This document shows, piece after piece, positions 10,383 through 53,883 of a stretch of 64,000 nt of DNA; within the stretch, counting starts at the first letter, position 1; every line of letters starts with the position of its first letter. The translations under genes and the position numbers were made by a program. Source of the DNA: an uncultured bacterium (GTDB lineage: Bacteria > Verrucomicrobiota > Verrucomicrobiia > Verrucomicrobiales > DEV007); assembly GCA_963977015.1 (NCBI GenBank), contig CAXBMO010000003.1, positions 128,001 to 192,000 of the forward strand, read 5' to 3'. The notes under the pieces are model-generated. The model was not told where the DNA came from. It saw only the letters and a program-made list of their open reading frames with translations, and did not search any database.

Positions 10383-12194
10383 TTACGATAGCTGCAACTG
10401 CGACAGCATTCGATAAAGGCCGTCGTGATCTTCAACCAACTGGTCATGAGACCCTTGCTGAATGATTTGCCCGTCACTGAGGACGAGAATCTGATCAGCG
10501 TTTCGCACTGTGGATAGCCGGTGAGCCACAATCAATGAAGTCCGATCGCGCATCAGATCGTCGAGCGCTTCCTGGACCAATCGCTCGCTTTCGGCATCCA
10601 ACGCATTGGTGGCCTCATCGAGGATGAGGACGGAAGGGTTGGCGAGAATCGCCCGCGCAATCGCGATTCGCTGCTTCTGGCCTCCGGACAGGCGAACGCC
10701 GCGCTCTCCGACCAAGGACTCGAATCCCTCGGGAAAGTTGTCGATAAACTCCAAGGCGTTGGCCCGCTTGGCAGCTTCCTTGATGTCTTCCTCGCTCGCC
10801 CCTGGCCGTCCATAGGCGATGTTCTCGTAAATTGATCCGCCAAAGAGCAGTACCTCCTGCGGGACAATCGCCGTTTGCCGGCGCAACCAGTCCAGAGGCA
10901 ACTCTCGCAAATCTTTGCCGTCGAGGGAGATGGAACCCTCTGTTGGATCAAAAAATCGCAACAAAAGCGAAATGATCGTCGATTTTCCGGCACCGCTTGG
11001 GCCAACAATGGCAATTCGTTGGCCGCTTTCGGCGACGAAGTTCACCTTTTTCAAGACCTCGACGTCTGGTCGACTCGGATAGGAAAATCTGACGTTCTGA
11101 AACTCAACACGACCGCTTGCGCGGCTGTCCGGCCGCTTTCCAGCGTCAGACCGGTCGGTTTCCGGTTCTTCCTCAAACAACTCTCTCAATCGATCGGTGG
11201 CCCCGACCGCTTTCTGGATGTTGCTCACGATTTCCGGCAATGCTGCAAATGCACCTCCCACAAAGGCTGTGACGAAACAAAATTTGGTGAACGCATCGCG
11301 AGCGATCTCTCCATCAACGAGAAGATGGGCCCCGGACCATACGACGAAGGTAATCGCTCCAAACAGGGCAAAAATGACCATGGCAACCATGATCGCCCTT
11401 CCTCCGATGAGCTCGAATGCCACCTTGAGGTACTTTTTCATCCCGGATTCGTAACGACGGGTCTCGTAGTCTTCGTTGGCAAAAGCTTTGACGTCGGCGA
11501 TGCCGTGGAGGGTCTCGTCAACAATCACGTTGGTTTCGGCAAGGAGATCCTGAGCTTCACGGGAACGTCCGCGAATCCGAAACCCGAACAATGAGATGGC
11601 GATCAAAACGACCGGCAGACTCAGCAACATGGTAAAGGTGAGTCGCGGGGAAAGGATGAAGAGAAAGGTTAATCCACCAAGAAGCATCACACATTGGCGT
11701 AGAAATTGGGGCGTGGTTGAGCAGAGGGTATCGCGAATCAAGCTCAAATCGGCAGCCAGGTGTCCGGAGATTTCCCCGACTCGACGCTCGTTGTAAAAAG
11801 CCATCGGGAGACGAACGAGCTTCTCATAGGTGTCCCGTCGTATATCAGCGACCGCCAAATCGCCAGCTCGCCCCAAAAGATGCATTCGAAAAAAGGTGAT
11901 GCAGGCCTGAATCGAAAGAATGATAAGAAGAGTGATGGCCACGCGGTTGACGGTGCCAAGGAGCGCTTCCCGACCTTCTGGGTGATCGCTGTTCATCGCT
12001 TCGCCAATCAATTCGCCCATCAGAATTGGAAACGCCATCGACATTCCGGCAGTGATCAACACGGCGATGATGCCGGGAACAAACATCATTTTGTAGCGGC
12101 CCAAGTAGGAAAACAGCCAAAGTGTTTTCTGCAGATTCTCGCGAGTGAGTTTGGCTTTTGGGACATCGTAGTCCTGTTGGTTGGGGCGCGCCAT
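10383..12194 (-). CDS. ABC exporter, fused permease/ATP-binding (MsbA-like)
   Basis: N-terminal TM helices; GPSGAGKS, LSGGQKQR, ILDEAT, AHRLST. Confidence 0.95.
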   Translation of the reverse strand: MARPNQQDYDVPKAKLTRENLQKTLWLFSYLGRYKMMFVPGIIAVLITAGMSMAFPILMGELIGEAMNSDHPEGREALLGTVNRVAITLLIILSIQACITFFRMHLLGRAGDLAVADIRRDTYEKLVRLPMAFYNERRVGEISGHLAADLSLIRDTLCSTTPQFLRQCVMLLGGLTFLFILSPRLTFTMLLSLPVVLIAISLFGFRIRGRSREAQDLLAETNVIVDETLHGIADVKAFANEDYETRRYESGMKKYLKVAFELIGGRAIMVAMVIFALFGAITFVVWSGAHLLVDGEIARDAFTKFCFVTAFVGGAFAALPEIVSNIQKAVGATDRLRELFEEEPETDRSDAGKRPDSRASGRVEFQNVRFSYPSRPDVEVLKKVNFVAESGQRIAIVGPSGAGKSTIISLLLRFFDPTEGSISLDGKDLRELPLDWLRRQTAIVPQEVLLFGGSIYENIAYGRPGASEEDIKEAAKRANALEFIDNFPEGFESLVGERGVRLSGGQKQRIAIARAILANPSVLILDEATNALDAESERLVQEALDDLMRDRTSLIVAHRLSTVRNADQILVLSDGQIIQQGSHDQLVEDHDGLYRMLSQLQLS

Positions 12195-39023: not shown

Positions 39024-40259
39024 TCACTCACGAAATCCCAATCCCTGTGATTCCAGCTTCTGATCCGGATTCATCGGGAAGGGCTTGGACGGGATAGGAG
39101 GTGAACCGACAGACACACTTCCCCCGAATGCCGAGGGATCGACTTCGGCAACTTCAACTGCTGAATCAAGGTTCTCCACGGAGAGTCCCTCAAAGGCCAG
39201 GAAATTGGCGACCTCTTCCTTCTTGGCCTCTCGCAAATATTTGTTCCGCATGACGCCCATCAAGCCGGATTCAAGTTGCACCCAACTCCATTCTTTTCCC
39301 TGTCCGTGAATCCGCCCTACCTTGCCACCATCAACTTCCAGCGGGATCGTGTTGTCAGTTCCTGTTTCAATCAGATGAATAGGGGCCCGATTTCGATTAA
39401 CGGCGAGATATCTTAATTCCGAGTTTGGCTGAGGCCCCTCGTCCTGCATCGCCAAAAGTGAGGGACTACTGGGGAGTGTTTCCGGTTTGGTCGGATCGTT
39501 TGCAGGTTTACGATTCCACCCTCGAAAAAGGCTCCGTAAGCCCACACTCTGTTCTGGCGAATGAGGCTTCTCTTCGGTTTGGTTGGAAGGTTTGCTCGCA
39601 AAGACACGTCCCAGCCATCCTTTGTTTCCAAGAGAGGGGTCCACCACTGGGATTTCTGATCCTAATGGGGCTGACAAGGTTTCCATGGTGTTCTGTGAAT
39701 CCTCCATGGGGCGTTCCCCCAAAACCTGAAGCCATTTCTGTTCCGTTTCAGATCCTGCCAGCATTACCTTTTCCTCCTGTTGATTATTCCGGCGTTCGAT
39801 CCCAATGCGAACCAGGATGTTGCTCAGGATCGCTGCAAAGCGGGATGGTTTCCGGGTTTCCGTCACACCCGGATTGCTCGGAGAAGGAGGCGCGATTGAT
39901 TTCTCGGGCTGAGTTGGGAGCTTTCGAATTTCGGCAAGAGGCTCGCTTTTCGTTTGCTCCAAATTCACAAGGTTATCTTCAGTGGCCTCAATCTCCGTCC
40001 TTTTCTTTCTTACGGAAAAATCAAAAGGAGCCGCGATTCTGCGAAGGAGGTTCCGCGATTTCCCGGGATTTGAAAAATTCGCCTCAACGTTGGGTTCCCG
40101 GGGACTCTCCAGATTCTCAATCAGTCGTTGTTCCGCGTTCTCAATCGCAACCGTATGCTCCCGGTTTCCTCGTTCTGCTGCCTTCATTAGTTCCGCGCTG
40201 AACGACAACACAATGAAGGCGAGAAAAAGCTGGCGGAGAAAAGAAAGAGGCTTGTTCAT
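39024..40259 (-). CDS. Secreted disordered protein with C-terminal SH3-like domain (paralog 3)
   Basis: Signal peptide; low-complexity linker; APIHLIE...GGKVGR...WSWVQLESGLMGVMRNKYLR. Confidence 0.75.
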   Translation of the reverse strand: MNKPLSFLRQLFLAFIVLSFSAELMKAAERGNREHTVAIENAEQRLIENLESPREPNVEANFSNPGKSRNLLRRIAAPFDFSVRKKRTEIEATEDNLVNLEQTKSEPLAEIRKLPTQPEKSIAPPSPSNPGVTETRKPSRFAAILSNILVRIGIERRNNQQEEKVMLAGSETEQKWLQVLGERPMEDSQNTMETLSAPLGSEIPVVDPSLGNKGWLGRVFASKPSNQTEEKPHSPEQSVGLRSLFRGWNRKPANDPTKPETLPSSPSLLAMQDEGPQPNSELRYLAVNRNRAPIHLIETGTDNTIPLEVDGGKVGRIHGQGKEWSWVQLESGLMGVMRNKYLREAKKEEVANFLAFEGLSVENLDSAVEVAEVDPSAFGGSVSVGSPPIPSKPFPMNPDQKLESQGLGFRE

Positions 40260-40336
40260 TAACAATTGTTAATAGTTAACCTTTGTAAGGGGTTTGTTTC
40301 AACTTGAATTTGTTGGTTTCTCAGTCAGGGAGTCCT

Positions 40337-41551
40337 CTAGTTCAGGGGCTCAGAACTATTGGTCTTCGGCGGAGAAACGGATCCATCAACCGGCAGTTGA
40401 GGTTCTGCGGAAGGCGACATGCTTCCCGACATCGAGCCGCTCAATGGAAGATCACGCACATCCAAATCCAATTCCATGACGCCGATGGCGGATTCGTGCC
40501 CCGGGCCACTACCCTCTGCGCTCTCGATGGCAAGAAACTCCATGACCTCCTCTCTGCTTGCCGGACGCAGGTGCTTATTTCGCATGACCCCCATCAAACC
40601 GGATTCCAGTTGCAGCCACGCCCATTCCTTGCCCTGCTCTTGAACCCGGCCCACTTTTCCTCCGTCCAGCTCAATCAAAAAGGTCTCGCTGGGGTCGATA
40701 TCGAAGACGTGAAATGGCGCTCCGCGTCCCTCAACTGCGCTGAACTCCATTTGTTTTCCGGTCCTGCTTACCTGACGAATGGGACCCGTTGCTTTCTCCT
40801 GCTCCCTTTCCGCAGTTGGATCTGTTTCAGACTTTCGCGAGGTTCGAGCGCGATTGGGATTGCGGGCTAACAGGAGGGCAAGTTTGGGTTCCTTTTCGCC
40901 TGACTTTGCGTTCCCGTTCTCCCCTCTGGCCTTCCGGGAGTCCAGTTTTGCCAAGAGCAAAAATGGCTGCGTGTTTTGGTCGGGTGATTTCTTTGGGACT
41001 GTAACGGGCTGGGGAGTGCTGGGTTTTTGGGGGCTAGTGGCAGGTTTTGGTGTCGGGATCGCCGCCTTGGACGCAATCAGAGTTTGAGGTTCGGTCTGTG
41101 CTTGCCGAAGGAGACGAGCCTTTTCTTCCTGATTTTCTTTTAATACCGCAAGCAGGGTACTACTCGGCGAACGAGCAGATTTGGTGGAGCGGGTTGCGGT
41201 GATGGATCGAAGTCGCTCAACCTCATAAGCAACGTCCATTTTACTGGTTAACTTCCCTTCCACCATTGTGGCGGGAATGAACGGCTTGGCCGGTTCCTGG
41301 TTGGTGAGGATGGCGTCGGCCGGATTAGGGGACGTTGTTGCTGGTGTGCTGTCGCCTTCGTTATCAGATGCGGTGATCTCCAGCGGTAGAATTCGAAAAC
41401 GATCCCGCAAGAAGTTAAGCCCAAGAATCTCACCAAGACTCTTCCGTTCTTGAGCGTTGTCCTCGGAAGTTTCGATCTCCGCACTCCATCCAGAAGCCAT
41501 TGCTGCGAGAGCAATGGCGTAAGCAAGGGTGATGAATTTAAGTTGGTTCAA
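40337..41551 (-). CDS. Secreted disordered protein with C-terminal SH3-like domain (paralog 2)
   Basis: TTG start, signal peptide; APFHVFD...GGKVGR...WAWLQLESGLMGVMRNKHLR. Confidence 0.75.
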   Translation of the reverse strand: MNQLKFITLAYAIALAAMASGWSAEIETSEDNAQERKSLGEILGLNFLRDRFRILPLEITASDNEGDSTPATTSPNPADAILTNQEPAKPFIPATMVEGKLTSKMDVAYEVERLRSITATRSTKSARSPSSTLLAVLKENQEEKARLLRQAQTEPQTLIASKAAIPTPKPATSPQKPSTPQPVTVPKKSPDQNTQPFLLLAKLDSRKARGENGNAKSGEKEPKLALLLARNPNRARTSRKSETDPTAEREQEKATGPIRQVSRTGKQMEFSAVEGRGAPFHVFDIDPSETFLIELDGGKVGRVQEQGKEWAWLQLESGLMGVMRNKHLRPASREEVMEFLAIESAEGSGPGHESAIGVMELDLDVRDLPLSGSMSGSMSPSAEPQLPVDGSVSPPKTNSSEPLN

Positions 41552-41596
41552 AAAAAAGGGGGGGCAAGTGTTTGACCAATCGTGCGCACCGAGATT

Positions 41597-43156
41597 TCAC
41601 TCCAGCGGTTCAGCCGCTTTCTCCGTCACGGGCTGTTCTGATTCTTCGGCGGCGGTGACTTCCATGGGTTCACTGGTCGTTTCGGACAGTGAAGGGAGTA
41701 GTCCTTCGCCCAAAAACATTCCGGCATCCGATACTTCTTCGGGAAGCTCTGGGAGATCGATTTCCACAAATTGCACAGGCTCCCGGCTACCGACCCCGGA
41801 GCCTGATTCCATTGCCAGAAAATTCATGACCTCGCTCTGTCTTGCGGGGCGGAGATGTTTTTTGCGCATGAGTCCCATCAGGCCGTCGTGCATTTCGAGC
41901 CAGGTCCAGTTCTCACCCGATCCGTGGGTGCGGCCCACCGCGCCTTGGCCGAGTTCGACCACAAAGGTATCTTCCGGCCCGCTGTCGATCACATGGAACG
42001 GAGCGCTGGAGACATCGATCGTGAAGTAGTTGGGATCGACTGGTCCGTCCGGAACGACTTGTTCCTTCTTGTCTTCCTCTTCCATGCTTTCATCATCAAT
42101 CGCCGCGACTTCGGTCGGTTCCGGCCGCTGCTGAAAGCTCAGCCACTTCTTCCACTTTCGATTGTCGGCTGGTTCTATCGACGCCAATTCAACAGGCGCC
42201 TCTTCTTCCGTGATCAGCTCTTCGTTCTCTTCGACTTCCGTCTCGGCGCTGGGCGGTTCAAAAAGACTCCTCAATCCTCGAAAAGCATATTTCGGGGACG
42301 AACTGGTTTCGTCTGCTTTTTCCTCTGGTTCTGGATCCTCAGCGGCCTCCGCAGATTCTTCCGTCTCCTTCGGCATCTCTGCCGGTTCCTGATTGTAGGA
42401 GACCAGCAAGGCTTCATTCTTCTTCTCGTCGAGATTTTCTTCGACCGACGCCACGGCTTCAACCTCCGGATTAGCCTTCGCAGCCTGGCCTCTCAATAAA
42501 ACGCCCAGCATTCGGGTCCGTGCCGGTTTCCCGTCCTTTGACGGAATTTCCTCCAGAATCGCAACCATCTCTTCCGCTTCCTGCTCTTCGTTAGGTTCAG
42601 GTGCTTTTTTGGTTCGCCACGGGAATCGAGCTTCGGAGACGGGTTCTTCCCCTTCTTCGGCTGGGCCGACATCGGCCACCGGTTCAGAATCAGGGGTGTT
42701 GTCCAGTCTCTCAACATTGGCTTCCTCACCCTCTTCCGGCTTGCTGGCGCGCCCCAAGGAGAAGCGGATGGTTCGGAGTTGCGGTTTGTCCGCCGTTTCC
42801 TGTTCCCTGGGCTCTCGGCGGGGCGCGGCAGTCTCTTTGGGTTGATTGACCGGCATTGGAGTGCCTGGAGTCCAATTGACAACAGCTCCCGTGGATGTCA
42901 CGAGGCGAAATTGCGGCGGCGGAGGTGCGGCCTGGTTTCGCGATGCCGGGTTTGCCGATACCTGCGGTAGGCTCGCGCTTTCCTGTCTCCCGATCTGAAC
43001 CGCCGCATCCTTCGCGGCTTTAAGTTGCCGGGCGCGCTGCAGCGCTGCCTCCTGTTGGCGACGCTCATACTCTTGCAAACCCGGATTCGATTGGGCGGGC
43101 AGCAGTTCGGCGCTGACCCAAAATAGGCAGCAAAGAAGGAGCAGAACAGGGTTCAT
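41597..43156 (-). CDS. Secreted acidic disordered protein with C-terminal SH3-like domain (paralog 1)
   Basis: Signal peptide; E/P-rich linker; APFHVID...GAVGR...WTWLEMHDGLMGLMRKKHLR. Confidence 0.78.
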   Translation of the reverse strand: MNPVLLLLCCLFWVSAELLPAQSNPGLQEYERRQQEAALQRARQLKAAKDAAVQIGRQESASLPQVSANPASRNQAAPPPPQFRLVTSTGAVVNWTPGTPMPVNQPKETAAPRREPREQETADKPQLRTIRFSLGRASKPEEGEEANVERLDNTPDSEPVADVGPAEEGEEPVSEARFPWRTKKAPEPNEEQEAEEMVAILEEIPSKDGKPARTRMLGVLLRGQAAKANPEVEAVASVEENLDEKKNEALLVSYNQEPAEMPKETEESAEAAEDPEPEEKADETSSSPKYAFRGLRSLFEPPSAETEVEENEELITEEEAPVELASIEPADNRKWKKWLSFQQRPEPTEVAAIDDESMEEEDKKEQVVPDGPVDPNYFTIDVSSAPFHVIDSGPEDTFVVELGQGAVGRTHGSGENWTWLEMHDGLMGLMRKKHLRPARQSEVMNFLAMESGSGVGSREPVQFVEIDLPELPEEVSDAGMFLGEGLLPSLSETTSEPMEVTAAEESEQPVTEKAAEPLE

Positions 43157-43254: not shown

Positions 43255-44475
43255 CTACATAGCCATCTCGTAAATTCGCTGACAGGAATCCCTATTGATC
43301 TCCACCGGATTGAACTGAGCGGTCCATTGGGCCGCTGCTTCCTCGGCCAGTCCGGAAACGTTCTCTTCGGTAACTCCGAGATCACGGGCGGTTTTGTTCA
43401 AGCCGGACTTTTTGAGCAAGTCGAGGACTCGTTCTTCCAGTTGGGGATGGAGAGACTGATAAATTTTCGCCACCTCAGGGGCTTGTGAATTCCAGCGGAT
43501 CACATGTGGTAGCATCGTTCCCACCGCTTGCCCGTGGATGATTCCAAAATGGGCCGAAAGAGGATTTGCAGTAGAATGGGCGACTCCCAGCATGCTGCTC
43601 TCAATCGCTGTACCGGCGTAAGCGGCACCGAGTTGCATTCTGGCCCGTGCCTCCAAATCGTTGGGATTCGCCAACACTCTTTCAAACCCTTCGTTCAGCA
43701 GGTGGAAGGCAAGTCGGGAATACTGAAGAGAAATGTCGTTCCGCTTTTTGCAGACTGCGGTTTCCACGGCGTGGGCAATTGCGTCGATTCCGGTAAGTGC
43801 GGTGACGCGATTTGGCTGGGTAATGGTGAGTTCAGGATCGAGAATGGCGACCTTCGCGGCAGCTTTTTGATCGCCGCATGCCATTTTCATGTGAGTCGTC
43901 TCATCGGCAATCAAGGCAAAGGACTGGCACTCGGATCCGGTTCCTGAGGTGGTTGGAATCGCGATCATCGGGAGCATGGGTTTGGTGGCCTTTCCAACGC
44001 CCCAATAGTCCTTCATCTCGCCGCCATTGGTTAAGATGAAGTTGCAGCCCTTCGCGGTGTCCATACTGGAACCACCTCCCAATCCCACGATCAAATCCAC
44101 ATCCCCTTCCCTTGCGACACGGACGGCGCGCTCGACGTCCTTGGTGGTTGGGTTCTCCCGGACCTCGTCGAAGACAAGCACTTCGAGACCGGCTTCCTCC
44201 AGGTAGGCGATGGTTCTTGATTCGTGTCCAACAGCCCTCAGGCCCGGGTCGGTTACCAGAAGTGTCCGTTTGCCGCCAAGCTCCTTCGCCTTTACTCCGA
44301 GCTGTGCAAGCGAGCCCGCACCAAAGACGAGTTCGCCGCCAGGCAAATGCCCGAAATGGGCGACTGACCGCTCAACATCAAAATCTCCAACAAGCGCCTC
44401 GATGCTGATTGCCTTCGACTCCGTGGCATTTGGCTCACCACGAGGTCTGAACAAGGCGTTGAAAAGGCGCTTCAA
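43255..44475 (-). CDS. Iron-containing alcohol dehydrogenase
   Basis: GGGSSMDTAK, PTTSGTGSE, DAIAHAVE, GVAH, HGQAV. Confidence 0.93.
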   Translation of the reverse strand: MKRLFNALFRPRGEPNATESKAISIEALVGDFDVERSVAHFGHLPGGELVFGAGSLAQLGVKAKELGGKRTLLVTDPGLRAVGHESRTIAYLEEAGLEVLVFDEVRENPTTKDVERAVRVAREGDVDLIVGLGGGSSMDTAKGCNFILTNGGEMKDYWGVGKATKPMLPMIAIPTTSGTGSECQSFALIADETTHMKMACGDQKAAAKVAILDPELTITQPNRVTALTGIDAIAHAVETAVCKKRNDISLQYSRLAFHLLNEGFERVLANPNDLEARARMQLGAAYAGTAIESSMLGVAHSTANPLSAHFGIIHGQAVGTMLPHVIRWNSQAPEVAKIYQSLHPQLEERVLDLLKKSGLNKTARDLGVTEENVSGLAEEAAAQWTAQFNPVEINRDSCQRIYEMAM

Positions 44476-44480
44476 TGGAA

Positions 44481-45917
44481 TTAGGCGATGTTTTCAATCT
44501 GGAAGGAACGGCGAGCATACAGAAACTCGAACAGATTCCCCTCATGCGGTTGGTCCCATTTGAGGCGATTCGTCGGGACATTGCCCACATTCAGTCGGTC
44601 AATCGTTGGATGGGCAAAGAGCTTGTTGATCCACTCAAGATCCCGAGTGATGGCCGTGCAGACGAGAGATTTTCCAATGTGGCCGATCATTTCTTCCTGT
44701 GGAGCCTCAATCACCGATGCGAAAGGAAACAAGAATTCGCGAATCGCGAGTTCATGGTCCCAGTCTGGAACGCGCACAATCGTGGGGAGAAGGTAATTCA
44801 TGCCATCCCTTTGTTGATAGCGGTCGGTGCCGCGCAATTCGGCGGAAACATCCCGTGCCCCGTCTTTCAAGCCACTCTCCACCGCATCATTGATCCAATC
44901 CGCCATTTTGGGATTCGCAAATCCGCTCAATTTGGCTTCAGGATCGTCTTGCGCCTTGGGCTCGATCGCCAGCAGTTTCTTCGCAACCGCTTCCGCGATT
45001 TCGTCCCCATATTTCGGTGTGACAATGACGGAAACATTGATGCAGCTTCTCCCTGAATTGGCGCTGACGGACTCAACGATGGTATCGACGTATTTTTCCC
45101 AATTCTCGACCTCATCCTCGCCGATCAGGATCTTGGAGTAGCCGGTACCGTGAACCTCGATCCGGGGATCATGCTCGTATTGCAGGACCGTGTCGTCCCC
45201 TCCAAACAGCATCACCCTGCCGGCGCGCCGGATAATCGCTCCGGATCCATCATGTTGGGTGGGGTAAAAGCTAAAGGCTTCCGGAGGTGCTCCGGCTTTC
45301 TTCATCGCCTCGATGATTCGAATCGGGGTCCAGGGTTCCTCTCGTCCCGGCTTGAGAACCACGGGCACTTTCAGCGCAATCGACGGCGCCCAGAGGGCAT
45401 TCACGGCCGGTGAGTTGGAGGGAAGGATCACCCCAAGGCAATCCGTTAACGCGGCGAAACTGACGGGTGCGCCATTCTGTTCGCCATAACCCTTGTCGAG
45501 AATATTAAGATCCAACCCTCTCGTCAGGCCCTTGAGAATGACATCCGTCTGCGCCATGACGCCATGAAGTCGCTTGTGATTCATCCGAATCAGGCTGTGC
45601 GGCAGGCCGCTGGTCATGGCCAATTGCATCACATAGTCCTCAGGACTCTGCATGTCGCCATTGCAGCCGACCGGTAACGTGTCATTCAGAAAGATATCCG
45701 CCGCATTTTTGCAGATCTCGAGTAGTTCGGAGCATTTGAATTGGTTGAGCGCCTTGCGGGCTTCGCCGATTTTCAGGAGATCATGCTTGATCATGTCGGC
45801 GCATGCAAAGCTGACCTCCGCGGCGTCCTTATCACCGGCGACGTTGGTGACAACCTGGGTATCCAGGCTCTTGTAGACGCGCCCTTGACGCAAAATGGGG
45901 ATGTGAGGAACACTCAT
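44481..45917 (-). CDS. ALDH-superfamily acyl reductase (LuxC/GriD-like)
   Basis: LPSNSP, KPG.EEP, catalytic Cys in NSGRSCIN, EFLFPF; HGTGYSK in place of ELGGK. Confidence 0.82.
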   Translation of the reverse strand: MSVPHIPILRQGRVYKSLDTQVVTNVAGDKDAAEVSFACADMIKHDLLKIGEARKALNQFKCSELLEICKNAADIFLNDTLPVGCNGDMQSPEDYVMQLAMTSGLPHSLIRMNHKRLHGVMAQTDVILKGLTRGLDLNILDKGYGEQNGAPVSFAALTDCLGVILPSNSPAVNALWAPSIALKVPVVLKPGREEPWTPIRIIEAMKKAGAPPEAFSFYPTQHDGSGAIIRRAGRVMLFGGDDTVLQYEHDPRIEVHGTGYSKILIGEDEVENWEKYVDTIVESVSANSGRSCINVSVIVTPKYGDEIAEAVAKKLLAIEPKAQDDPEAKLSGFANPKMADWINDAVESGLKDGARDVSAELRGTDRYQQRDGMNYLLPTIVRVPDWDHELAIREFLFPFASVIEAPQEEMIGHIGKSLVCTAITRDLEWINKLFAHPTIDRLNVGNVPTNRLKWDQPHEGNLFEFLYARRSFQIENIA

Positions 45918-45926
45918 GGCGCCGAC

Positions 45927-47144
45927 TTAGTAAACTCCTTCGATGATCTTCTTCTCAAGGAACCCGAATGGCCTTACGTCGCCAACTCCATCCCAGGCAA
46001 ACTTCGCATGAGGCTTCCGGCGGATTGCTTCATCCCGCTCCAAGAATCGCGGCATGAAGAATTCCTTGGTGAGAGTCGTGAGTTCCACGCGCCCGTATTC
46101 TCCGTAGTCCCGCGTGACTTCCGTTTTCTCGGGATCAACAATTCGCAAAATGGCACGGGGCTGTGGAGCCCAATAGGTGACCGAGTAGTCATTCTGGGGC
46201 AGCTCCTCGGGCACGCTCATCGCGAGCCCCATCAAAGTGTTTCCGTAAGTGGGAACGAACAGGGATTTTCCTTCGAGGACTTCCTCCTGAAGAAAGCGAA
46301 CATATTCCGGCGTCATTGAAGTTCCGCCACAGAAGCACCCCTTGATTCCATGATCGGGGATCGAGATGCGTTCGCCAATCGAGGCGAGCAGCTTCGGGGT
46401 CGTGAAAATGCAGGAAATGTCGCGATGCTTGATGATCTCAACCGCCTGGTTCATGACGTGGGCCTGGTAGCGCTCCACCTCATCCAATTGTTTGCGGCCA
46501 ATGAGTCGCTTCACCCAACGCGGGTCGAGATCGACGTGATAGCAGCTTCCCCCGCGGTAGTTGGCCAGATGCTCCACCGCAAGACGCAGGCGCCGCGGTC
46601 CGGTAGGTCCAACCATGATCCAATTTCCTCCCTTCGGAAAAAACTCGTCACTCAGGTTGTCGCCGAACTGCTCGTAGTCGTGCTTGTAATCGTCCCAACC
46701 GACGCGTTGCTTTGGCAGTCCGGTTGTCCCTCCCGTTTCGAAGACATTGAATGGTCTTCCGCCCATTCCTTTTGGCACGAATCGCTCGTTCTTCTCATCG
46801 CGAAGCCACTCGTCCTGAAAGTGATCGAACTTGATAATATCCTCGTAAGTTTTGATTTCTTCGCGAGGATCCCATCCTGATTTCTGTTTCCATTCCAACC
46901 AAAACGGACAACCGGTTTCATCGGAGAAATGCCAGTTGATCACCTCACGAAGGTGGTCATTCAGTTCGCTCCTGGCTTTGTCCACCGGATCTGACGAGGT
47001 GGATTCTGTGGGATTTGGGGTGTCGATCACAATCGGTGTTTGTTTTTCGTTTTCTGCTTCCGGTTCCGCTCCTGCTGCGGCTGACAATCCGCCTCCGTTG
47101 GGGGCAGCGTCTTCAGTTGATTTCTTTTTGCCGAGACCAAACAT
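45927..47144 (-). CDS. Adenylate-forming enzyme of the EhpF/GriC (PaaK/LuxE-like) family
   Basis: WHFS.ETG.PFW, ETGGTTGLPK, GPTGP, DLDPRWVK, YGNT, RV.LT.L..E.F.P..LERD. Confidence 0.82.
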   Translation of the reverse strand: MFGLGKKKSTEDAAPNGGGLSAAAGAEPEAENEKQTPIVIDTPNPTESTSSDPVDKARSELNDHLREVINWHFSDETGCPFWLEWKQKSGWDPREEIKTYEDIIKFDHFQDEWLRDEKNERFVPKGMGGRPFNVFETGGTTGLPKQRVGWDDYKHDYEQFGDNLSDEFFPKGGNWIMVGPTGPRRLRLAVEHLANYRGGSCYHVDLDPRWVKRLIGRKQLDEVERYQAHVMNQAVEIIKHRDISCIFTTPKLLASIGERISIPDHGIKGCFCGGTSMTPEYVRFLQEEVLEGKSLFVPTYGNTLMGLAMSVPEELPQNDYSVTYWAPQPRAILRIVDPEKTEVTRDYGEYGRVELTTLTKEFFMPRFLERDEAIRRKPHAKFAWDGVGDVRPFGFLEKKIIEGVY

Positions 47145-47180
47145 GGCTCTAGTTCAATCAATCTCAAATTCGGTGGCCGC

Positions 47181-48758
47181 TTACGGGAAGAACTTGGCCA
47201 CGGTTTCATCACTTGGCGGTTTCGTCGCCAATGATCCAGCAATCATGGCCACGGCTCCGACCAACCACATGATAGCGACGGGTTTGATGCCGCCTCCAAA
47301 GGTGTATTCTCCGCCAAACCCCGAGACGACAAAGAAGATCAGCCAAGTGACAGTGACGGAAATCACGCAGGCGTAGGCACCCGCACGGGTGGCGCGTCTC
47401 CAGTAAAGGGCCGCAATCACCAGAGGGGTCAGCGCTGCGAAGCCCGAGAAACTCCAGATGGCCAGGTCAAAGACGTTCTGAACTTCTCTCAGGGCGAGCG
47501 AGAGAATAAAGGTGATCAGCACAATCCCGACAACAAAGCCTCTGGCGATGAGCAGGATTTGATTGTCGGTGTATTTCCTTTTGGCGTTGTGGAGGACAAT
47601 GTCGTTGGTGAACATCGTGCCCAAACACAGGAATTGGCTATCCAATGATGACATGATTGCTGCCAGGATTCCTGCCGTCACGAGCCCCACAACAATCGGA
47701 TTGGCCACCAAACCCTTGAGGGTCAGACTCAAGACAGCCCCCACGCTCGCATCCGGCAAGCCCTTGAGAAATGCCAATGGAGGCTTCGCAAACGCCTCGT
47801 TTCCTTCGACAAACCCACCGGTCGCCCAAAGCCCGATCAAGACACAGGGCACCCAGACGATCATGATACAAATCGGATGGGCAATGACCGTAAGCTTGAA
47901 TGCCTGGGCGCTTCTTGCCGTGAGCCAGTGCTGGAACAAGTGCGGAAACATTCCAACACTCAGGGGGATAAACATATAGGTCAGAAACATCAGTGGCGGC
48001 ACGCCGACTTCTCGGAGAAAGGTCCCTTCCTTGGTGACCACTTCGATTTCGGATGGCGTTCGCACCAGGTGCGCTGGGTTTGCCTGCTCGATTGCTGCCT
48101 GCAGTCCTCCCAATCCCTTCGAAATCAGCGTGAACGCAAGCACGCCCATGATCATGAAAACGATCGTTTGAAAGGTGTTGGCCCAGGCGGCGGCTCGTGA
48201 ACCACCGGCAAAAATATAGGTCAGAACCACCCCGCAGATCACCAAACCGATGAGCCAAGGTGGCAGTGAGCCGTCAGGCATGCCCATTCCCGGGAACAAG
48301 CCGCGTGATAGCGGTCCCAATACCCGGTAGGAGCCGATGACGCCGATCAGGAGGTAAGGGATGACGAGGAGCACCAAAATCGGAAACAGCAGGTAGCCGA
48401 AGGTGCTTGATTCGAATCTTCCCCTGAAAAACTGGATCTGCGTCACGTAGCCGTGGCGCTTCCCGATTGCCCAGAGTTTGATGCCGATGAAGAAGAAGCA
48501 GGCTGCATGAATCAGGCCGGAGGAGGAGGCCATTAATCCATAGGTGCCGACTCCCCGCTGAAACGCTTTTCCGGTGGAACCAACGAGGGCGAAGGCAGTC
48601 ATGGTCGTCCCGAAAACGGACATCAACAGCATGAACGGGCCGATCGAGTGGCTGGCGACAAAGTAGTCCTTGCTCGTCCCGCGGAAGAACGTTTTGGAGA
48701 AAAGGGCCAGCCCCAGGAGCAGCCCCAGATAAATCGCGATAACGATGATCGATTGCAT
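47181..48758 (-). CDS. Sodium:solute symporter family protein
   Basis: About 13 TM helices; DYFVA, PHLFQ, AAIMSSLDS, LYWRRAT. Confidence 0.92.
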   Translation of the reverse strand: MQSIIVIAIYLGLLLGLALFSKTFFRGTSKDYFVASHSIGPFMLLMSVFGTTMTAFALVGSTGKAFQRGVGTYGLMASSSGLIHAACFFFIGIKLWAIGKRHGYVTQIQFFRGRFESSTFGYLLFPILVLLVIPYLLIGVIGSYRVLGPLSRGLFPGMGMPDGSLPPWLIGLVICGVVLTYIFAGGSRAAAWANTFQTIVFMIMGVLAFTLISKGLGGLQAAIEQANPAHLVRTPSEIEVVTKEGTFLREVGVPPLMFLTYMFIPLSVGMFPHLFQHWLTARSAQAFKLTVIAHPICIMIVWVPCVLIGLWATGGFVEGNEAFAKPPLAFLKGLPDASVGAVLSLTLKGLVANPIVVGLVTAGILAAIMSSLDSQFLCLGTMFTNDIVLHNAKRKYTDNQILLIARGFVVGIVLITFILSLALREVQNVFDLAIWSFSGFAALTPLVIAALYWRRATRAGAYACVISVTVTWLIFFVVSGFGGEYTFGGGIKPVAIMWLVGAVAMIAGSLATKPPSDETVAKFFP

Positions 48759-48779
48759 AGGTGGATTCGCGATTTGGAA

Positions 48780-48998
48780 TTAAACGTCTTGTCCGTCCGC
48801 CCACTTTTCCAGCCGGGTCGGCCAAGCGAACTTCATGACCAAGGCCCAGAAAACGGCGGCCATGATGGAGTAGGTGGCGTGGTAAAACAGCCCCACCGGC
48901 ATAAAGCCCATGATCAGGTCTGAGTTATCCCAATTCCAGCTATCCTGGTGAAGGACAGCAAAGAGAATAAATACCGCTACAATGATTTTCGTCTTCAT
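48780..48998 (-). CDS. DUF3311-type small membrane partner of SSS transporter
   Basis: 72 aa, two TM helices, HQD.WNW...GFMPVGL.YH; 21 nt upstream of the SSS gene. Confidence 0.8.
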   Translation of the reverse strand: MKTKIIVAVFILFAVLHQDSWNWDNSDLIMGFMPVGLFYHATYSIMAAVFWALVMKFAWPTRLEKWADGQDV

Positions 48999-49060
48999 GC
49001 GCTAGAAGGAAACGTCCTTCCCGGGGGTTTGGAGAAATCAAGAAAGTGCCGATTGGCGGC

Positions 49061-50641
49061 TTACTCTCCGAAAGCATACAGATGGGTTTGGGTGGTGACG
49101 TACAATACGCCATTCGCAGCCACGGGGCTGGAGTAGATCGGAGCCGGAAAATCGACGGTCATCAGGACTTCCTTGCTCTTCACCTTGCCGTCACCATCCG
49201 CGTCGGCATCCTTCGAAGCTTTGATGACAATCAATTCTCCGTCTTCATTACCAAGGTAAACTTTCCCATCGGCCACGAGACTGGATCCCCAAATGTGGCT
49301 GAGGGTGTCGTGAACCCAATAGAGCTCACCCGTATTGGCATCGAGGCAATGAAGCACGCCGGAATAGTCGGCAATAAAGAGCAGGCCGTCATCGGTCACC
49401 GAAGGTGTTGAAATGGTCCTTTTTATGCCGTCGTAGGTCCAAATTGCACCGGATGGATTCGCAACTTCGCCTTCCGCGTCGGCGCTGATACAGCTCAATA
49501 GGCCAACGCCTTCACCGTGTTCTGGATCCTGTCCGATCGCGGCATAGATTTTTCCGTTGTGATAGACTGGGGTGGCGATGAATTCGCTGGGTCCAGGGTA
49601 GGTGGCATACTTCACCTTCTCGCCGGAGTCGTTGACCCGATACTCTTTCTTATTGCCGTCATAACGAAAGACTTCCGGAAGAATGTCGAAACCCTCTTCA
49701 TCTTTGACGGTTTCAGGTTTGAATCCGTAAACGAAGCCGTCACCGGCGCCAAATAGAACCATTTTTTTGTCCTTGTGCTCAACGTAACCTGGTGAGCCCC
49801 AGTTGCAGTGCATGACGCGTTGGCCAATGCCGGATCCCTCTTCCCCGACGAGCTCTCCAGTTTCCTTGTCCAGCGCCACGAGGCAGGGCGAAAGCGGGGC
49901 TGGAATGTTGATGTGTGACCAATCCACACCGTTCGAAGTCGAGGCGAAGATGTGTTTTCCGTCGGTGGCGACCGAAGAGCTGGTCACGTTGTGGGGAAAA
50001 ACGCCAAGCTCACTGCGGAGGTCGAATCCCCAGATGATGTCAGCATCGTTTTCGCCCTGTTCAACCAGAGCCACATTCGCCTTACCATCCAGCCCCTTCG
50101 CTGCATACTCAGCTTCTTCCGTGAAAGGGCCGGCGTTGCCGTCAGCGAGGCCGTTCATATCAAAACAAAGCACTTCGCCCCGGTTGGTTACCACGTAACC
50201 CTTCCCGTCATCAATGAGCGGGGAGGAACACATGCCCAAAAACTCCCAGTCAGACACCTTGCCTGCTCCAAGCTTCGGTGTTGTGAGTTGCCAGAGGTAA
50301 CCACCGGTCGCCTCGTCGAAACACATGATGACTCCACGATCTCCAATGATTCCAGGATTTCTCGGTTCCTCATTATTGGTCCCGACAAGCACCTTTCCTT
50401 CCCCTATTGTCGGCGTTCCGTAGGTCTGCGATCCGAGTTTCGCCACCCATTTCAGCCCCTTGGCCGACGCGGTGATTTCTTCGAGGGTTTTCCCTTCGCC
50501 GGCATCCATTTCAGCTGGAAGTCCAGTAACCGGGGAAACCATGTTCTTGCTGTTGTCGCGGCCCCACTGTTTCCAGTCGGCATAGGCGGTTGAGGTGATT
50601 GCAACAGCAATTGCTGTTTTCAGAATGGCGGTTTTGTTCAT
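49061..50641 (-). CDS. Secreted PQQ-like beta-propeller repeat protein
   Basis: Signal peptide, DWKQWG, repeated ssP....g.vy.g...G.l.cld..TG...W blades. Confidence 0.87.
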   Translation of the reverse strand: MNKTAILKTAIAVAITSTAYADWKQWGRDNSKNMVSPVTGLPAEMDAGEGKTLEEITASAKGLKWVAKLGSQTYGTPTIGEGKVLVGTNNEEPRNPGIIGDRGVIMCFDEATGGYLWQLTTPKLGAGKVSDWEFLGMCSSPLIDDGKGYVVTNRGEVLCFDMNGLADGNAGPFTEEAEYAAKGLDGKANVALVEQGENDADIIWGFDLRSELGVFPHNVTSSSVATDGKHIFASTSNGVDWSHINIPAPLSPCLVALDKETGELVGEEGSGIGQRVMHCNWGSPGYVEHKDKKMVLFGAGDGFVYGFKPETVKDEEGFDILPEVFRYDGNKKEYRVNDSGEKVKYATYPGPSEFIATPVYHNGKIYAAIGQDPEHGEGVGLLSCISADAEGEVANPSGAIWTYDGIKRTISTPSVTDDGLLFIADYSGVLHCLDANTGELYWVHDTLSHIWGSSLVADGKVYLGNEDGELIVIKASKDADADGDGKVKSKEVLMTVDFPAPIYSSPVAANGVLYVTTQTHLYAFGE

Positions 50642-50743
50642 TGGTCGATCTCTGGAAAAGTAGGTTTGGAAAACAAAGTGCCGAAATACTCAAAAAGGGA
50701 TATTTCGGAAGGCCTGCATGGGGCCGTCAATTCAAAGGGGGCT

Positions 50744-53023
50744 CTAGTTTTGGGTGATTTCGATGTTGTCGATGAAAACGCTCTTTTGGCTCTGTGGAGA
50801 GAAGCCGAACAATCCGGGGGCACCCTTCTTGTGGGCCTTCTTGTGCTCGACTTCGATTGTCCAAGTATCAGGCTCGCCCGTTCCCTTTTCCCAAGCTTTT
50901 GCGCGAACCACTCCCGAGCCGTCATCGTTGAGGTCGACCCGCATCTTCAACGTATACCAACTGTTTGCCTTGATCGGGAAACTGACGCTCTGCTTCACTC
51001 GTTCGTGATTTGAGCTCACCTCAAGAAGGTTTGAGTTTCCAATCAAGGAGCAGTTGTAGCGTTGGTTGATTAATCCCACCGTGGATTTCACCCGCCGGTT
51101 TCCATCCGTCATCAAATCGGCCTGGATCGTATAATTGCTGGAGTCAGGGTGTCCGATAAAGCTCTGGCAACGCTGAAAGAGGATGTTGTCCAACGTTTTG
51201 GCCAGGACCTTGTTGCCATCCAAATCGCGAACTTCCCACTTCAAGCGCGCGCCAATCCAAGGCAGTGGTGGAAAGGAGAATTTAAAACCCTCCGCATGGT
51301 CAACCGTGAGATCATAGCTCTCAAAATCCTCCGAAATTGGCAGAGCTTCGATCACTCTTCCACGAACAAAACCCGACTTGCCATCTGCGGTCCCCTTGAA
51401 CATTCCCGCCGATTCCGAAGCGGATTCGGTTGCAACCAAGACACCTTGATCGTCAAAGTCCGCGTCCAGTTTCGCCTTCACCTTCGCAGTAGGCGGAATG
51501 AACTTCTCCCACGTGGCTGAGGAGACTTCCCCGACTGCGTTTCCGTTGGCGTCTACCGACGTAATTAAGAAATCGACTTTGTCGCCGGGTTCGAGCAAGA
51601 CATCCGAAGGCACCGCCCGAATTCCTGTCACGGGTCCCTTCACGATGGGCTCAGACTTGGGAAGGTCTCCCCAGGTGATGCCGTCGTTCTCGAACTTGAA
51701 CGCGTAAAGTTTGCTCATCGTGTGGACATAGACCCAGCCATTGCAAACAGCGGGCGAACCGAGGCAATTCCCTTCCATGGGGATCTTGTGGAGAATCTCC
51801 GGGCCTTCGTCACTTGGGCGAATCACGAAGAGCTTCTCCAGATTCATCGGAACAATCAGGAGACCGTCCACATAGGCCGGTGAAGCATGCAGTTGACCGG
51901 TATCCAGTTTTTCATGCCAAAGAATTTCTCCGGTATCAGCCACCATGCAGAACAATTCTCCTTCGTGCGAAACCTGATAAACGCGATCTCCCACCAGGAC
52001 CGGGGAGCTGGTGAACATTCCGAACGGCTGGCGCCACCGTTCGACACCCTCCTCAATCCGCGGCGCCCCTTTCTGCATGGGGTCAACCACGCCTCCTGAA
52101 TTGGCGTCGTCGCTTGGTAAATTCAGGGCGAACATCCGACCAATCTCCGTGGTATCCAAATTCTCCTTGCCGTGAACTCCAATGAGTTTGTCTCCGTGGA
52201 TGAGAACCGAAGAGTTGATTCCGCCCATCGACATCTGGTAGCGCCACAGAGGTTTTCCGTCAGCCAGATTTACGCAAACCAAGTTACCGCATCCGGTGCC
52301 GGCGTAAAATACCTGGCGCCCGTTGCGAACCGTCACGACCGGCGAAGAAAAACTGGTGTCCTTGAGAAAGGGCGGGCCCACTCCCGGGGTTGAAGACCAA
52401 ACCAATTCCCCGGTGTTCTTATCAAAGCCAAAAAAGCGATCTCGCGCAGGACCGTCCGCTCCCCAGTAACTGGTCACAGCCCGGGTGATGAGCAAATCGT
52501 CGACGATGACGCATGAACCAGCTCTTCCGTTGGGGAACGTCAGTCGCCCAAAGCGCTCCATCATGGAAATCTCCCAGAGAAGGTTTCCATCCCGGTCGTG
52601 ACAATTCAGCAGCCCATAAGTTGTATGGAGAAAAATATTCCCCGTCTCCGGATCCACAACTGGTGCACCGATCGCGTAACGATCGTAAACCGTGTCACTG
52701 ATGAAATCGCTGAAGGTTCGCTCCCAGATCACCTTGCCCGTTAACGGGTCCAAGGCGGACAAAACTTCCTCCAGATCCGGACCTGATCCGCGATAGCCCC
52801 ATGAATACATCTGCCCATCGTGAATGACCGGTGTCCCACGACCTGCAATTTCCCGGGTCCAAGCGGGTTCAGGATTGAATTTTCCGTTTTCATACTGCTC
52901 TAAACTTACCCCCGTTTGAAGAGGGCCACGCCAGTGCAGCCAGTTACCTTTGTGGGGATCCTCCTGAGCAAGCAAAGCAAGTGGGAGGAGAAGGAATGTA
53001 ATGGTCGAGGTTTTGAAGATCAT
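50744..53023 (-). CDS. Secreted PQQ-like beta-propeller protein with C-terminal Ig-like and lectin-like domains
   Basis: Signal peptide, NWLHWRGP, propeller blades; C-terminal EDFE...WYTLKMRV...KAW...EP..W beta-sandwich. Confidence 0.85.
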   Translation of the reverse strand: MIFKTSTITFLLLPLALLAQEDPHKGNWLHWRGPLQTGVSLEQYENGKFNPEPAWTREIAGRGTPVIHDGQMYSWGYRGSGPDLEEVLSALDPLTGKVIWERTFSDFISDTVYDRYAIGAPVVDPETGNIFLHTTYGLLNCHDRDGNLLWEISMMERFGRLTFPNGRAGSCVIVDDLLITRAVTSYWGADGPARDRFFGFDKNTGELVWSSTPGVGPPFLKDTSFSSPVVTVRNGRQVFYAGTGCGNLVCVNLADGKPLWRYQMSMGGINSSVLIHGDKLIGVHGKENLDTTEIGRMFALNLPSDDANSGGVVDPMQKGAPRIEEGVERWRQPFGMFTSSPVLVGDRVYQVSHEGELFCMVADTGEILWHEKLDTGQLHASPAYVDGLLIVPMNLEKLFVIRPSDEGPEILHKIPMEGNCLGSPAVCNGWVYVHTMSKLYAFKFENDGITWGDLPKSEPIVKGPVTGIRAVPSDVLLEPGDKVDFLITSVDANGNAVGEVSSATWEKFIPPTAKVKAKLDADFDDQGVLVATESASESAGMFKGTADGKSGFVRGRVIEALPISEDFESYDLTVDHAEGFKFSFPPLPWIGARLKWEVRDLDGNKVLAKTLDNILFQRCQSFIGHPDSSNYTIQADLMTDGNRRVKSTVGLINQRYNCSLIGNSNLLEVSSNHERVKQSVSFPIKANSWYTLKMRVDLNDDGSGVVRAKAWEKGTGEPDTWTIEVEHKKAHKKGAPGLFGFSPQSQKSVFIDNIEITQN

Positions 53024-53190: not shown

Positions 53191-53883
53191 TTAATAACCG
53201 TGGCGCAAGTGTCGCCAGATCGAAAAGCGCTCACTTCTGCCATCGCTGCCTCGCCGGGTTCCTTGCCAGCTCACGGTATCGTTCGATAATTGCTTTTTCA
53301 GGAACACTTCAGCCGTCCTGGAAGGACCGTCATACTCATCGAAATAGAGTTGGCCGGTGCGTGGGTTGACGCCCTCAAGCATGGCGTAATGATCGGCACC
53401 TTGCCGATTAGGTGGCGCGAAATAGTAGAGGCCAATCACGGTGTTCGAATCCAACCAGCGAAGGGCAACCTTCATCTGATCTCTGCCCGTGTATCCGTGG
53501 TAGAACTGAGCAGGCGAATCAAACTCCATGTAAAATGACGAGATCTCGCGCAGGGCAAAAAACGCATTCAATTCGTATTCCTGTCGCCCCATCCCCAGCG
53601 CCAGACCCTCCCGGAGATCCAGCAGGTCTGCGCCAGCCGGCCCCAGGAATGACTGCACGACTTGGATTCGCCGATCCAGTCGCTCGAGATCCGGGGTATC
53701 GGTTCGGTCATCCCAAAGCGGATCGATCCTCGGTCCATAAAGAAAGCCCTCAAAAAAGTTCGTAAACTCGTTGCGTTCCCTCCCCTCGCCATAACCCATC
53801 GGGCCGGCGTTGCTTTGAAACGGAATCAAGAGGGCCGCAGAAACCGCCCAAACCTGCAATTGAAGTGCTGTTATTGTGTTCAT
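53191..53883 (-). CDS. Hypothetical secreted protein
   Basis: 230-aa ORF with a signal-like N-terminus, filling the gap between genes. Confidence 0.6.
   Translation of the reverse strand: MNTITALQLQVWAVSAALLIPFQSNAGPMGYGEGRERNEFTNFFEGFLYGPRIDPLWDDRTDTPDLERLDRRIQVVQSFLGPAGADLLDLREGLALGMGRQEYELNAFFALREISSFYMEFDSPAQFYHGYTGRDQMKVALRWLDSNTVIGLYYFAPPNRQGADHYAMLEGVNPRTGQLYFDEYDGPSRTAEVFLKKQLSNDTVSWQGTRRGSDGRSERFSIWRHLRHGY

Follow-up and report, generated by a model that had tools for sequence, protein, structure and literature searches.

The window analysed here, a stretch of 64,000 nucleotides on contig C3 of the 6.9-Mb, 95%-complete genome of an uncultured Verrucomicrobiales bacterium (G000, hereafter the source genome), carries at 43255..53023 seven open reading frames (ORFs), all co-oriented on the minus strand. 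They encode two beta-propellers of the pyrroloquinoline quinone (PQQ)-like type, a symporter with a small membrane protein, a putative two-component carboxylate reductase and an iron-containing alcohol dehydrogenase (Fe-ADH). The seven genes are a real and widely conserved putative operon. Most likely it turns an aromatic acid into an alcohol and is one part of a larger undescribed biosynthetic pathway, the genes of which are scattered in the genome. The genes are as follows.

50744..53023, minus strand: propeller 1, 759 aa (Pfam PQQ_2, 90.8 bits)
49061..50641, minus strand: propeller 2, 526 aa (Pfam PQQ_2, 71.3 bits)
48780..48998, minus strand: DUF3311 small membrane protein, 72 aa (Pfam E 8.7e-7, 29.3 bits, just below the cut-off of 30)
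47181..48758, minus strand: sodium:solute symporter (SSS), 525 aa (Pfam SSF, 107.9 bits)
45927..47144, minus strand: truncated adenylating enzyme of the EhpF/GriC type, 405 aa (Pfam AMP-binding, 29.7 bits, just below the cut-off of 29.9)
44481..45917, minus strand: acyl reductase of the EhpG/GriD type with the aldehyde dehydrogenase (ALDH) fold, 478 aa (Pfam Aldedh)
43255..44475, minus strand: Fe-ADH, 406 aa (Pfam Fe-ADH, 175 bits)

The initial annotation of this DNA had given seven co-oriented genes with gaps of 102, 62, 21, 36, 9 and 5 nt, and the ORF coordinates bear this out; the 5-nt gap rests on a TTG start at 44475 for the Fe-ADH, and in most relatives the start lies 15–40 residues later. 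The G+C content of the operon resembles that of the remaining window, and the closest named homologues come from Verrucomicrobiales or Verrucomicrobia. None of the seven proteins is above the cut-off of an NCBIfam equivalog, and a scan for promoters and terminators gave no excess over shuffled sequences (3 vs 5.1; 9 vs 13.9).

Enzymes, transporter and propellers of the operon

The only PDB matches of the 405-aa adenylating protein are to EhpF (E 3.8e-47, and E 2.5e-59 in a profile search). Residues 59-405 align to EhpF 21-369 up to the last residue, and the protein terminates at EGVY, as EhpF does; AMP-binding_C has no Pfam match in it, so that it is without the C-terminal domain of CoA ligases. 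The motifs by which it had been likened to EhpF and GriC (ETGGTTGLPK, GPTGP, DLDPRWVK and YGNT) are all present. In a quick 60-sequence tree its own clade (SH-aLRT 99) stands apart from Pantoea EhpF and from the PaaK-like ligases, the latter being split off with a support of 100, and BLASTP against the PaaK-like protein of the source genome itself gave no significant match (E 0.036). Many homologues are automatically labelled as PaaK-type CoA ligases, and this identity is ruled out by the quick tree and the missing C-terminal domain. The assignment as an EhpF/GriC-like enzyme, which does not group with ordinary CoA ligases, thus agrees across the PDB, profile, residue and tree comparisons. The gene is present in a single copy in the source genome.

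The adenylating protein starts with a low-complexity extension of ~50 residues, found only in close kin. Short basic or amphipathic N-terminal extensions, again restricted to close kin (G002, G010), are seen in both this enzyme (46983-47144) and the Fe-ADH (44356-44475), and are possibly membrane-targeting. A search for fusions of the two reductase subunits gave 16 longer proteins; nearly all are single-member clusters, many cover the query partially and some are joined to unrelated domains, and they were judged assembly artefacts and left unused. Distant EhpF-like domains also occur as C-terminal fusions with a class III aminotransferase or a zinc alcohol dehydrogenase (P0160, P0226), which suggests acid-to-amine and acid-to-alcohol modules elsewhere. 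On a Streptomyces plasmid (L023, NZ_CP104318.1, 7826-14047) an EhpF-like gene annotated as ‘arylcarboxylate reductase’ lies amid futalosine-pathway genes (mqnD, mqnE, mqnC, mqnA-like), and no ALDH partner was found within the 19 kb fetched there.

The ALDH-like protein is 25% identical over 448 aa (E 1e-33) to the Pantoea protein encoded after ehpF (EhpG) and is the best match of EhpG in the source genome; its PDB matches include no ALDH of its own clade. In 67 of 67 orthologues N168, K189, C292, E394 and H458 are invariant, H256 stands in place of the general-base Glu, and position 192, which specifies NAD, is never Glu. We take the roles of these positions, including that of C292 as the catalytic Cys, to be those established for ALDHs. 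Since C292 is kept, His replaces the general-base Glu and Glu is missing at the NAD-specifying position, the pattern fits a putative NADPH-dependent acyl reductase. The reductive direction proposed in the initial annotation is upheld by these residues, and its GriD-like partner is supported as one of the EhpG/GriD type. Its ‘LuxC-like’ label and its comparison with LuxE-LuxC hold as an analogy only, because the Pfam LuxC and LuxE models miss the pair at E 0.01; in the source genome the LuxC model matches only another ALDH, on contig C7. The best NCBIfam match of the ALDH-like protein is a CoA-acylating dehydrogenase, far below its cut-off.

The predicted complex of the adenylating and ALDH-like proteins scored 0.80, vs 0.01 for the best control, with a partner pLDDT (predicted local distance difference test) of at least 86 and a contact agreement between runs of at least 83%. 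Of the solved pairs 116 of 157 attain this score mark, and of the mismatched pairs 2 of 215; for these alignments such figures are only rough. As a prediction, the model supports a putative binding of the two subunits to each other.

At least 90% of 28 orthologues retain the metal ligands of the Fe-ADH (D231, H235, H300, H314), and the enzyme is proposed to convert the aldehyde to the alcohol. The SSS protein is below the cut-off of every named NCBIfam equivalog. Its probable accessory is the DUF3311 protein; in Sinorhizobium a DUF3311 gene is described as adjoining, and as being co-regulated with, the monocarboxylate symporter MctP (PMC9100948).

Both propellers have a signal-peptide-like N-terminus (by inspection) and eight blades. 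Propeller 1 (PQQ_2/BamB-like, model pLDDT 91) has its best VIA match in YxaL (Z 38.3, root-mean-square deviation 2.2, 335 aligned, 19% identity) and continues with ~300 C-terminal residues of beta-sandwich domains, which have no PDB sequence match and were barely probed by the fold searches. In several Poribacteria loci this C-terminal part is a separate ORF, and the second gene of the split pair has a lipobox-like cysteine. In L114 a gene for a Vgb-lyase-like propeller (11248-11943) separates the EhpF-like gene from the ALDH-like one, as it does in other loci of Poribacteria. Propeller 2 (PQQ_2-like, model pLDDT 90) matches by fold only generic propellers, at no more than 24% identity; at least 90% of its 41 orthologues share T88-N89-N90, D131, C138, H217-N218, D240, H243, H278, Q371-D372 and E374-H375. 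As both propellers keep many polar residues across phyla, their conservation suggests that they may hold a binding or catalytic site.

Conservation and the wider gene set

With the source genome counted in, the EhpF-like gene is present in 31 of 41 close relatives, which makes it near-core in one order, and in 5 of the 201 that were drawn from the phylum at large, where one of the five is a weak fragment. At least 596 relatives are among 602 pattern matches listed in species genomes, and the clade is 52–93% identical across phyla. Around the gene, 32 stretches were fetched within the phylum, several of which end at contig ends. The ALDH-like gene is found in 20 of them, the Fe-ADH in 19, the symporter in 16 and each propeller in 18; all six large genes occur together in nine, of which one belongs to a different class within the phylum. 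Because of these shared neighbours the arrangement is beyond chance, and the synteny of the operon is conserved.

Ordered by their similarity to a planctomycete-type query, the best 80 of the 602 loci come mainly from Acidobacteriota, Planctomycetota and Poribacteria. Within 10 kb of the EhpF-like gene they carry the ALDH-like gene (57), a GT4 glycosyltransferase (50), an ATP-binding cassette (ABC) ATPase (44), FtsX (39), propeller 2 (17), Fe-ADH (8) and the symporter (2). In several Acidobacteria the symporter lies ~15–40 kb off, within the same extended cluster.

In the relative G041 the whole set is contiguous. The run begins with the propellers, DUF3311, SSS, the EhpF-like and ALDH-like genes and Fe-ADH, passes to an ACSF4-like propeller, a radical S-adenosylmethionine (SAM) enzyme, a chorismate-lyase-like gene and a halogenase, and continues with GT4, a thioesterase, an EamA-like gene, a PaaK-like ligase, ABC, FtsX (1100 aa) and a TonB receptor. 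Similar clusters are found in loci of Planctomycetota, Acidobacteriota and Poribacteria. In the source genome the orthologues are dispersed: the HemN-type radical SAM enzyme, the lyase-like gene and the halogenase lie together on C1, the PaaK-like ligase on C2, ABC and a propeller on C5, the 4HBT thioesterase and the EamA-like gene on C7, the ACSF4-like propeller on C13, GT4 on C20 and FtsX on C37. The best explanation is that the operon forms the reductive, envelope-facing part of a conserved biosynthetic pathway, which is dispersed here and contiguous in other genomes. Two genes outside the window are located as follows.

L137:7839-8423 (source contig C1, ~395.8–396.4 kb): chorismate-lyase-like gene, by ESM Atlas, predicted fold and profile
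L139:5384-6676 (source contig C20): GT4 with an invariant N-terminal C-x-x-C-x-R-D-N motif

The lyase-like protein has an ESM Atlas language-model feature score of 0.98 to a cluster of putative chorismate-pyruvate lyases, a predicted fold with a template-modelling (TM) score of 0.7 to Rv2949c-like folds and a profile match to PDB 2NWI (E 5e-5). Its clade is widespread in Verrucomicrobiota and Planctomycetota, and standard annotation would miss it. For the flavin enzyme on C1 all 17 of 17 orthologues retain GxGxxG, Lys102 and WxWx(I/V)P, with V in place of I in a single case, and its best PDB matches are halogenases (E 2.5e-63); it is a putative flavin-dependent halogenase, which might instead act as a hydroxylase or in another role. 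The solved relatives of the radical SAM enzyme are HemN and the methyltransferase NocN. The CxxC motif of GT4 is a possible metal or redox site. Members of the GT4 family are also encoded by genomes that lack the enzyme block, and by clusters of Bacteroidota.

The initial annotation had noted that phz, gri and lux genes are missing from the window. For the phz and gri core this extends to the whole 95%-complete genome: a tblastn search with PhzA/B, PhzD and PhzF of Pantoea gave no match in it at E 1e-4, the matches of PhzE are partial and that of PhzG is 28%, and the GriH family (PF01959) has no match, its positive control being matched in 3 of 14 genomes. Family searches for PhzA/B and PqqC had no positive control, and the phz question was redone with the Pantoea proteins. 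Other cognate genes do lie elsewhere: since the lyase-like, halogenase and radical SAM genes are on other contigs, a cognate core exists in this genome that is neither phz nor gri.

Each gene was followed in 80 genomes, 60 of them from the phylum (37 of 40 relatives and 23 of 200 phylum draws; 32 EhpF-positive, 28 negative) and 20 EhpF-positive ones from other phyla. In the positive vs negative genomes of the phylum the ALDH-like gene is found in 31 v 2, Fe-ADH in 32 v 2, the halogenase (E <1e-90; three genomes with a weaker paralogue only are uncounted) in 31 v 2, the radical SAM enzyme in 31 v 1, the lyase-like gene in 31 v 1, the ligase in 29 v 1, GT4 in 32 v 4, propeller 2 in 30 v 5 and the symporter in 25 v 1, one of the 25 being a partial match with a stop. 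The exceptions for the enzyme genes among the negatives are G006 and G024, which are 79–80% complete. In the 20 genomes of other phyla the counts are 18 for each of ALDH-like, Fe-ADH, GT4 and propeller 2, 17 for the halogenase and for the radical SAM enzyme, 16 for the symporter, 11 for the ligase and 6 for the lyase-like gene.

Seven EhpF-positive genomes of the phylum gave no match for the symporter; four of these (G027, G033, G034, G038) are either 99% complete or fully closed, and all seven carry the lyase-like gene, the halogenase and the radical SAM enzyme. The initial annotation had proposed that the operon imports an exogenous carboxylate for catabolism or detoxification. This is weakened, because the symporter is the most dispensable partner and the scattered tailoring genes track the reductase pair more tightly. 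As the main function, import-coupled catabolism or detoxification is not retained; the import idea survives as a salvage branch, and the symporter is probably an optional member that serves precursor salvage.

Among the direct neighbours, a co-oriented 230-aa ORF upstream of the operon (53191-53883) has no family match and keeps its position only in G002 among the fetched stretches. At 39024-43156 three tandem co-oriented paralogous ORFs (519, 404 and 413 aa) have low-complexity N-termini and a common C-terminal stretch, which by eye we take to be SH3b-like; the 519-aa paralogue has no Pfam match, and the group is not conserved beside the operon. In the fetched stretches neither 53191-53883 nor 41597-43156 is conserved with the operon.

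Proposed pathway and its alternatives

We suggest, with a probability of roughly 55%, that a halogenated or methylated 4-hydroxybenzoate is reduced to a benzyl alcohol that then receives a sugar and is handed on to the envelope, and that the symporter salvages a precursor. Gene identities, residue patterns, synteny and co-occurrence are observed, and from them we infer the substrates, the product, the order of the steps and the link to the propellers.

Step 1: The chorismate-lyase-like enzyme (C1) would yield 4-hydroxybenzoate. The DUF3311/SSS symporter could instead import 4-hydroxybenzoate or the already modified acid. The PaaK-like ligase would then tether 4-hydroxybenzoate to CoA.

Step 2: The flavin halogenase and the HemN-type radical SAM enzyme would decorate the ring by halogenation and methylation. 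The 4HBT thioesterase would release the acid.

Step 3: The EhpF-like enzyme would adenylate the acid, and its bound EhpG-like partner would take the acyl group onto Cys292, with NADPH reducing it to the aldehyde. The Fe-ADH would reduce the aldehyde further to the benzyl alcohol.

Step 4: The GT4 with its CxxC motif would glycosylate the alcohol, and the ABC/FtsX exporter would deliver the product to the periplasm. The PQQ-like propellers may bind or use it there.

Several observations weigh against this proposal. The lyase-like protein is without any Pfam match, only one of 15 non-planctomycete genomes from other phyla yielded its gene, and Pfam Chor_lyase was also blank in the four of the non-planctomycete genomes that were searched with it. 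In the 52 EhpF-positive genomes lyase and symporter are both present in 29, lyase only in 8, symporter only in 12 and neither in 3; as independence would give ~3.2 with neither, there is no statistical complementarity of the two, and this idea was rejected. The acidobacterial genomes G247, G250 and G252 (completeness not given) carry the symporter, and the lyase, halogenase, radical SAM enzyme and ligase were not found in them. On a plasmid of Halalkalicoccus jeotgali (L022, NC_014299.1, plasmid 2, 7535-12359) SSS, EhpF-like, ALDH-like and short-chain dehydrogenase/reductase (SDR) genes follow one another, with a primary-amine oxidase and an IclR regulator next to them and without any core cluster; this run belongs to another branch of the EhpF-like tree. 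Both cases fit the import-coupled idea for those lineages. In three genomes of 94–98% completeness (G013, G048, G059) propeller 2, GT4 and FtsX are present and the enzyme genes are not, so that the envelope block can stand alone. The residues of the predicted subunit interface are barely more conserved than average (0.75 vs 0.67; 0.80 vs 0.77), and this was not accepted as independent support of the complex. The co-occurrence counts are patterns rather than tests, because the genomes are relatives of each other rather than independent samples, and the EhpF-negative ones differ in size and lineage. Finally, GriC/GriD are likened here by description, and the sequence comparison rests on EhpF/EhpG.

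A reduced aryl compound might be made by the aromatic-tailoring genes together with the reductase pair and the Fe-ADH, with the propellers, GT4, ABC and FtsX forming a separate envelope system that is merely co-located, or with a substrate that is not derived from 4-hydroxybenzoate. The three envelope-only genomes, the extension of the GT4 family to Bacteroidota, the abundance of PQQ_2 proteins (33 in the source genome) and the scarcity of the lyase in the non-planctomycete genomes of other phyla speak for this alternative. Yet propellers 1 and 2 stand directly upstream of the EhpF-like gene in several phyla, GT4-ABC-FtsX follow directly after the ALDH-like gene in most acidobacterial loci (GT4 50 and FtsX 39 in the best 80 loci), and none of the three envelope-only genomes gave a match for propeller 1. 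We consider this possibility rather unlikely. More doubtful still is a self-contained pathway that imports and reduces an exogenous carboxylate for catabolism, detoxification or salvage. Of the 32 fetched stretches 16 have DUF3311/SSS directly upstream of the pair, DUF3311 is described elsewhere as paired with a monocarboxylate symporter, and the three acidobacterial genomes and the haloarchaeal plasmid fit such a pathway. Against it, SSS is the least retained gene (25/32, vs 29–31/32 for lyase, halogenase, radical SAM enzyme and ligase), ring-cleavage genes do not recur in the neighbourhoods examined, and its cost in ATP and NADPH would make acid reduction a poor catabolic entry.

The enzymes might also run in the oxidative direction, from the alcohol through the aldehyde (Fe-ADH) to acyl-AMP (by an acylating ALDH), with the EhpF-like enzyme reversed to recover ATP. 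Fe-ADHs are reversible, acylating ALDHs are also without the general-base Glu, and a CoA-acylating dehydrogenase is the best, if far sub-threshold, NCBIfam match. This direction is nevertheless very improbable: the absence of Glu from the NAD-specifying position in all 67 orthologues points to NADP(H), the characterised relatives are described as working reductively, an acid-producing lyase co-occurs, and reversed adenylation would require high pyrophosphate.

As a speculative extension of the reductive pathway, its product, a halogenated or methylated, glycosylated 4-hydroxybenzyl compound, could be a vitamin-like aromatic cofactor or ligand for the large families of PQQ-like propellers in these bacteria, in which PQQ synthesis is not evident; we hold this idea unlikely. 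Relatives with import or envelope genes only would then be salvagers, and producer-like, import-only and envelope-only gene sets do all exist. The 33 propeller ORFs (PQQ_2) of the source genome, the lack of a PqqE match above the cut-off in it (best match 42 bits vs a cut-off of 381) and the polar residue clusters of the propellers are consistent with such a role. PQQ can be scavenged. In a first look, PQQ_2 candidates had a median of 62.5 (14–189) in the 32 EhpF-positive genomes vs 2.5 (0–15) in 22 with neither block, a correlation that is confounded by lineage and genome size; G013, with 107 candidates and without the enzyme genes, is a counter-example.

The gene set is single-copy and strongly conserved in Verrucomicrobiota, Planctomycetota, Acidobacteriota and Poribacteria, which suggests a housekeeping-like small molecule of abundant soil, marine and sponge bacteria that has not yet been isolated. 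The proposed pathway names a concrete metabolite class to look for and may offer a way into the expansion of PQQ-like propellers, for which there is as yet no explanation. The reductase would be one without need for a phosphopantetheinyl carrier and may serve biocatalysis.

Comparison with known systems

The propellers of the operon have the same eight-bladed fold as PQQ-dependent dehydrogenases, BamB, YxaL and tetrathionate hydrolase (VIA Z 27–38), and are at most ~21% identical to any natural solved relative. Judged by family scores they are not PQQ-dependent dehydrogenases (TIGR03075, 38.1 and 25.8 bits vs a cut-off of 480), nor are they BamB (TIGR03300, 57.5 and 44.6 bits vs 285), of which neither propeller N-terminus has the lipobox cysteine.

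LuxE and LuxC work by adenylation, transfer to a cysteine and reduction with NADPH, and LuxE has a C-terminal cysteine. The reaction logic proposed here is the same; the adenylating protein of the operon is without a C-terminal cysteine and there is no luciferase context. To our knowledge, the reductase of the EhpF/EhpG and GriC/GriD type is known only from antibiotic and pigment clusters. No published description of the operon was found in a search whose coverage leaves out most subscription journals.

An analogue of the lyase-like and halogenase genes on C1 is BaaA/BaaB of Planctomycetales strain 10988, where a lyase-like and a flavin-halogenase gene are likewise adjacent. BaaA/BaaB, known here by description, are proposed to make halogenated 4-hydroxybenzoate, and BaaB is given as ~44% similar to Bmp5 (bioRxiv 10.1101/723874). 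Unlike the Bmp5-like BaaB, the C1 halogenase is of the CndH/PltA/CmlS type. In its accessible part that preprint contains no genetic work, and neither a reductase nor a radical SAM enzyme nor propellers are mentioned (bioRxiv 10.1101/723874).

The reductase pair itself is best compared with EhpF/EhpG from the D-alanylgriseoluteic acid cluster of Pantoea agglomerans (EhpF, PDB 3HGU, 3HGV, 3L2K). In both systems a truncated adenylating enzyme ending in EGVY is followed by an ALDH-fold partner; the identities are ~32% and 25%, and the DPRWVK, GPTGP and PH(E/D)G motifs are in common. EhpF-O are described as carrying phenazine-1,6-dicarboxylate onward (PMC3175449), and ehpF and ehpG are reported as adjacent in a Proteus cluster as well (PMC11278526). 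The window clade differs in being separate and far more conserved. Unlike in the ehp setting, phzA/B, D and F are missing from the source genome; in the ehp cluster an SDR follows the pair where the Fe-ADH stands here, and the propeller, SSS and GT4 context is missing from it.

In the published description GriC adenylates 3-amino-4-hydroxybenzoate and GriD reduces it (PMC10179220). As far as it is described, the GriC/GriD system from the grixazone pathway of Streptomyces griseus is thus a two-component adenylation and reduction of a 4-hydroxybenzoate-type acid, the same working scheme as we propose here. It belongs to a secondary-metabolite cluster, whereas the gene discussed here is single-copy and near-core, and no GriC label occurs among the names of the EhpF-like cluster members. 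Judged by its sequence-level features, the reductase of the operon is an undescribed multi-phylum variant of the GriC/GriD and EhpF/EhpG type.

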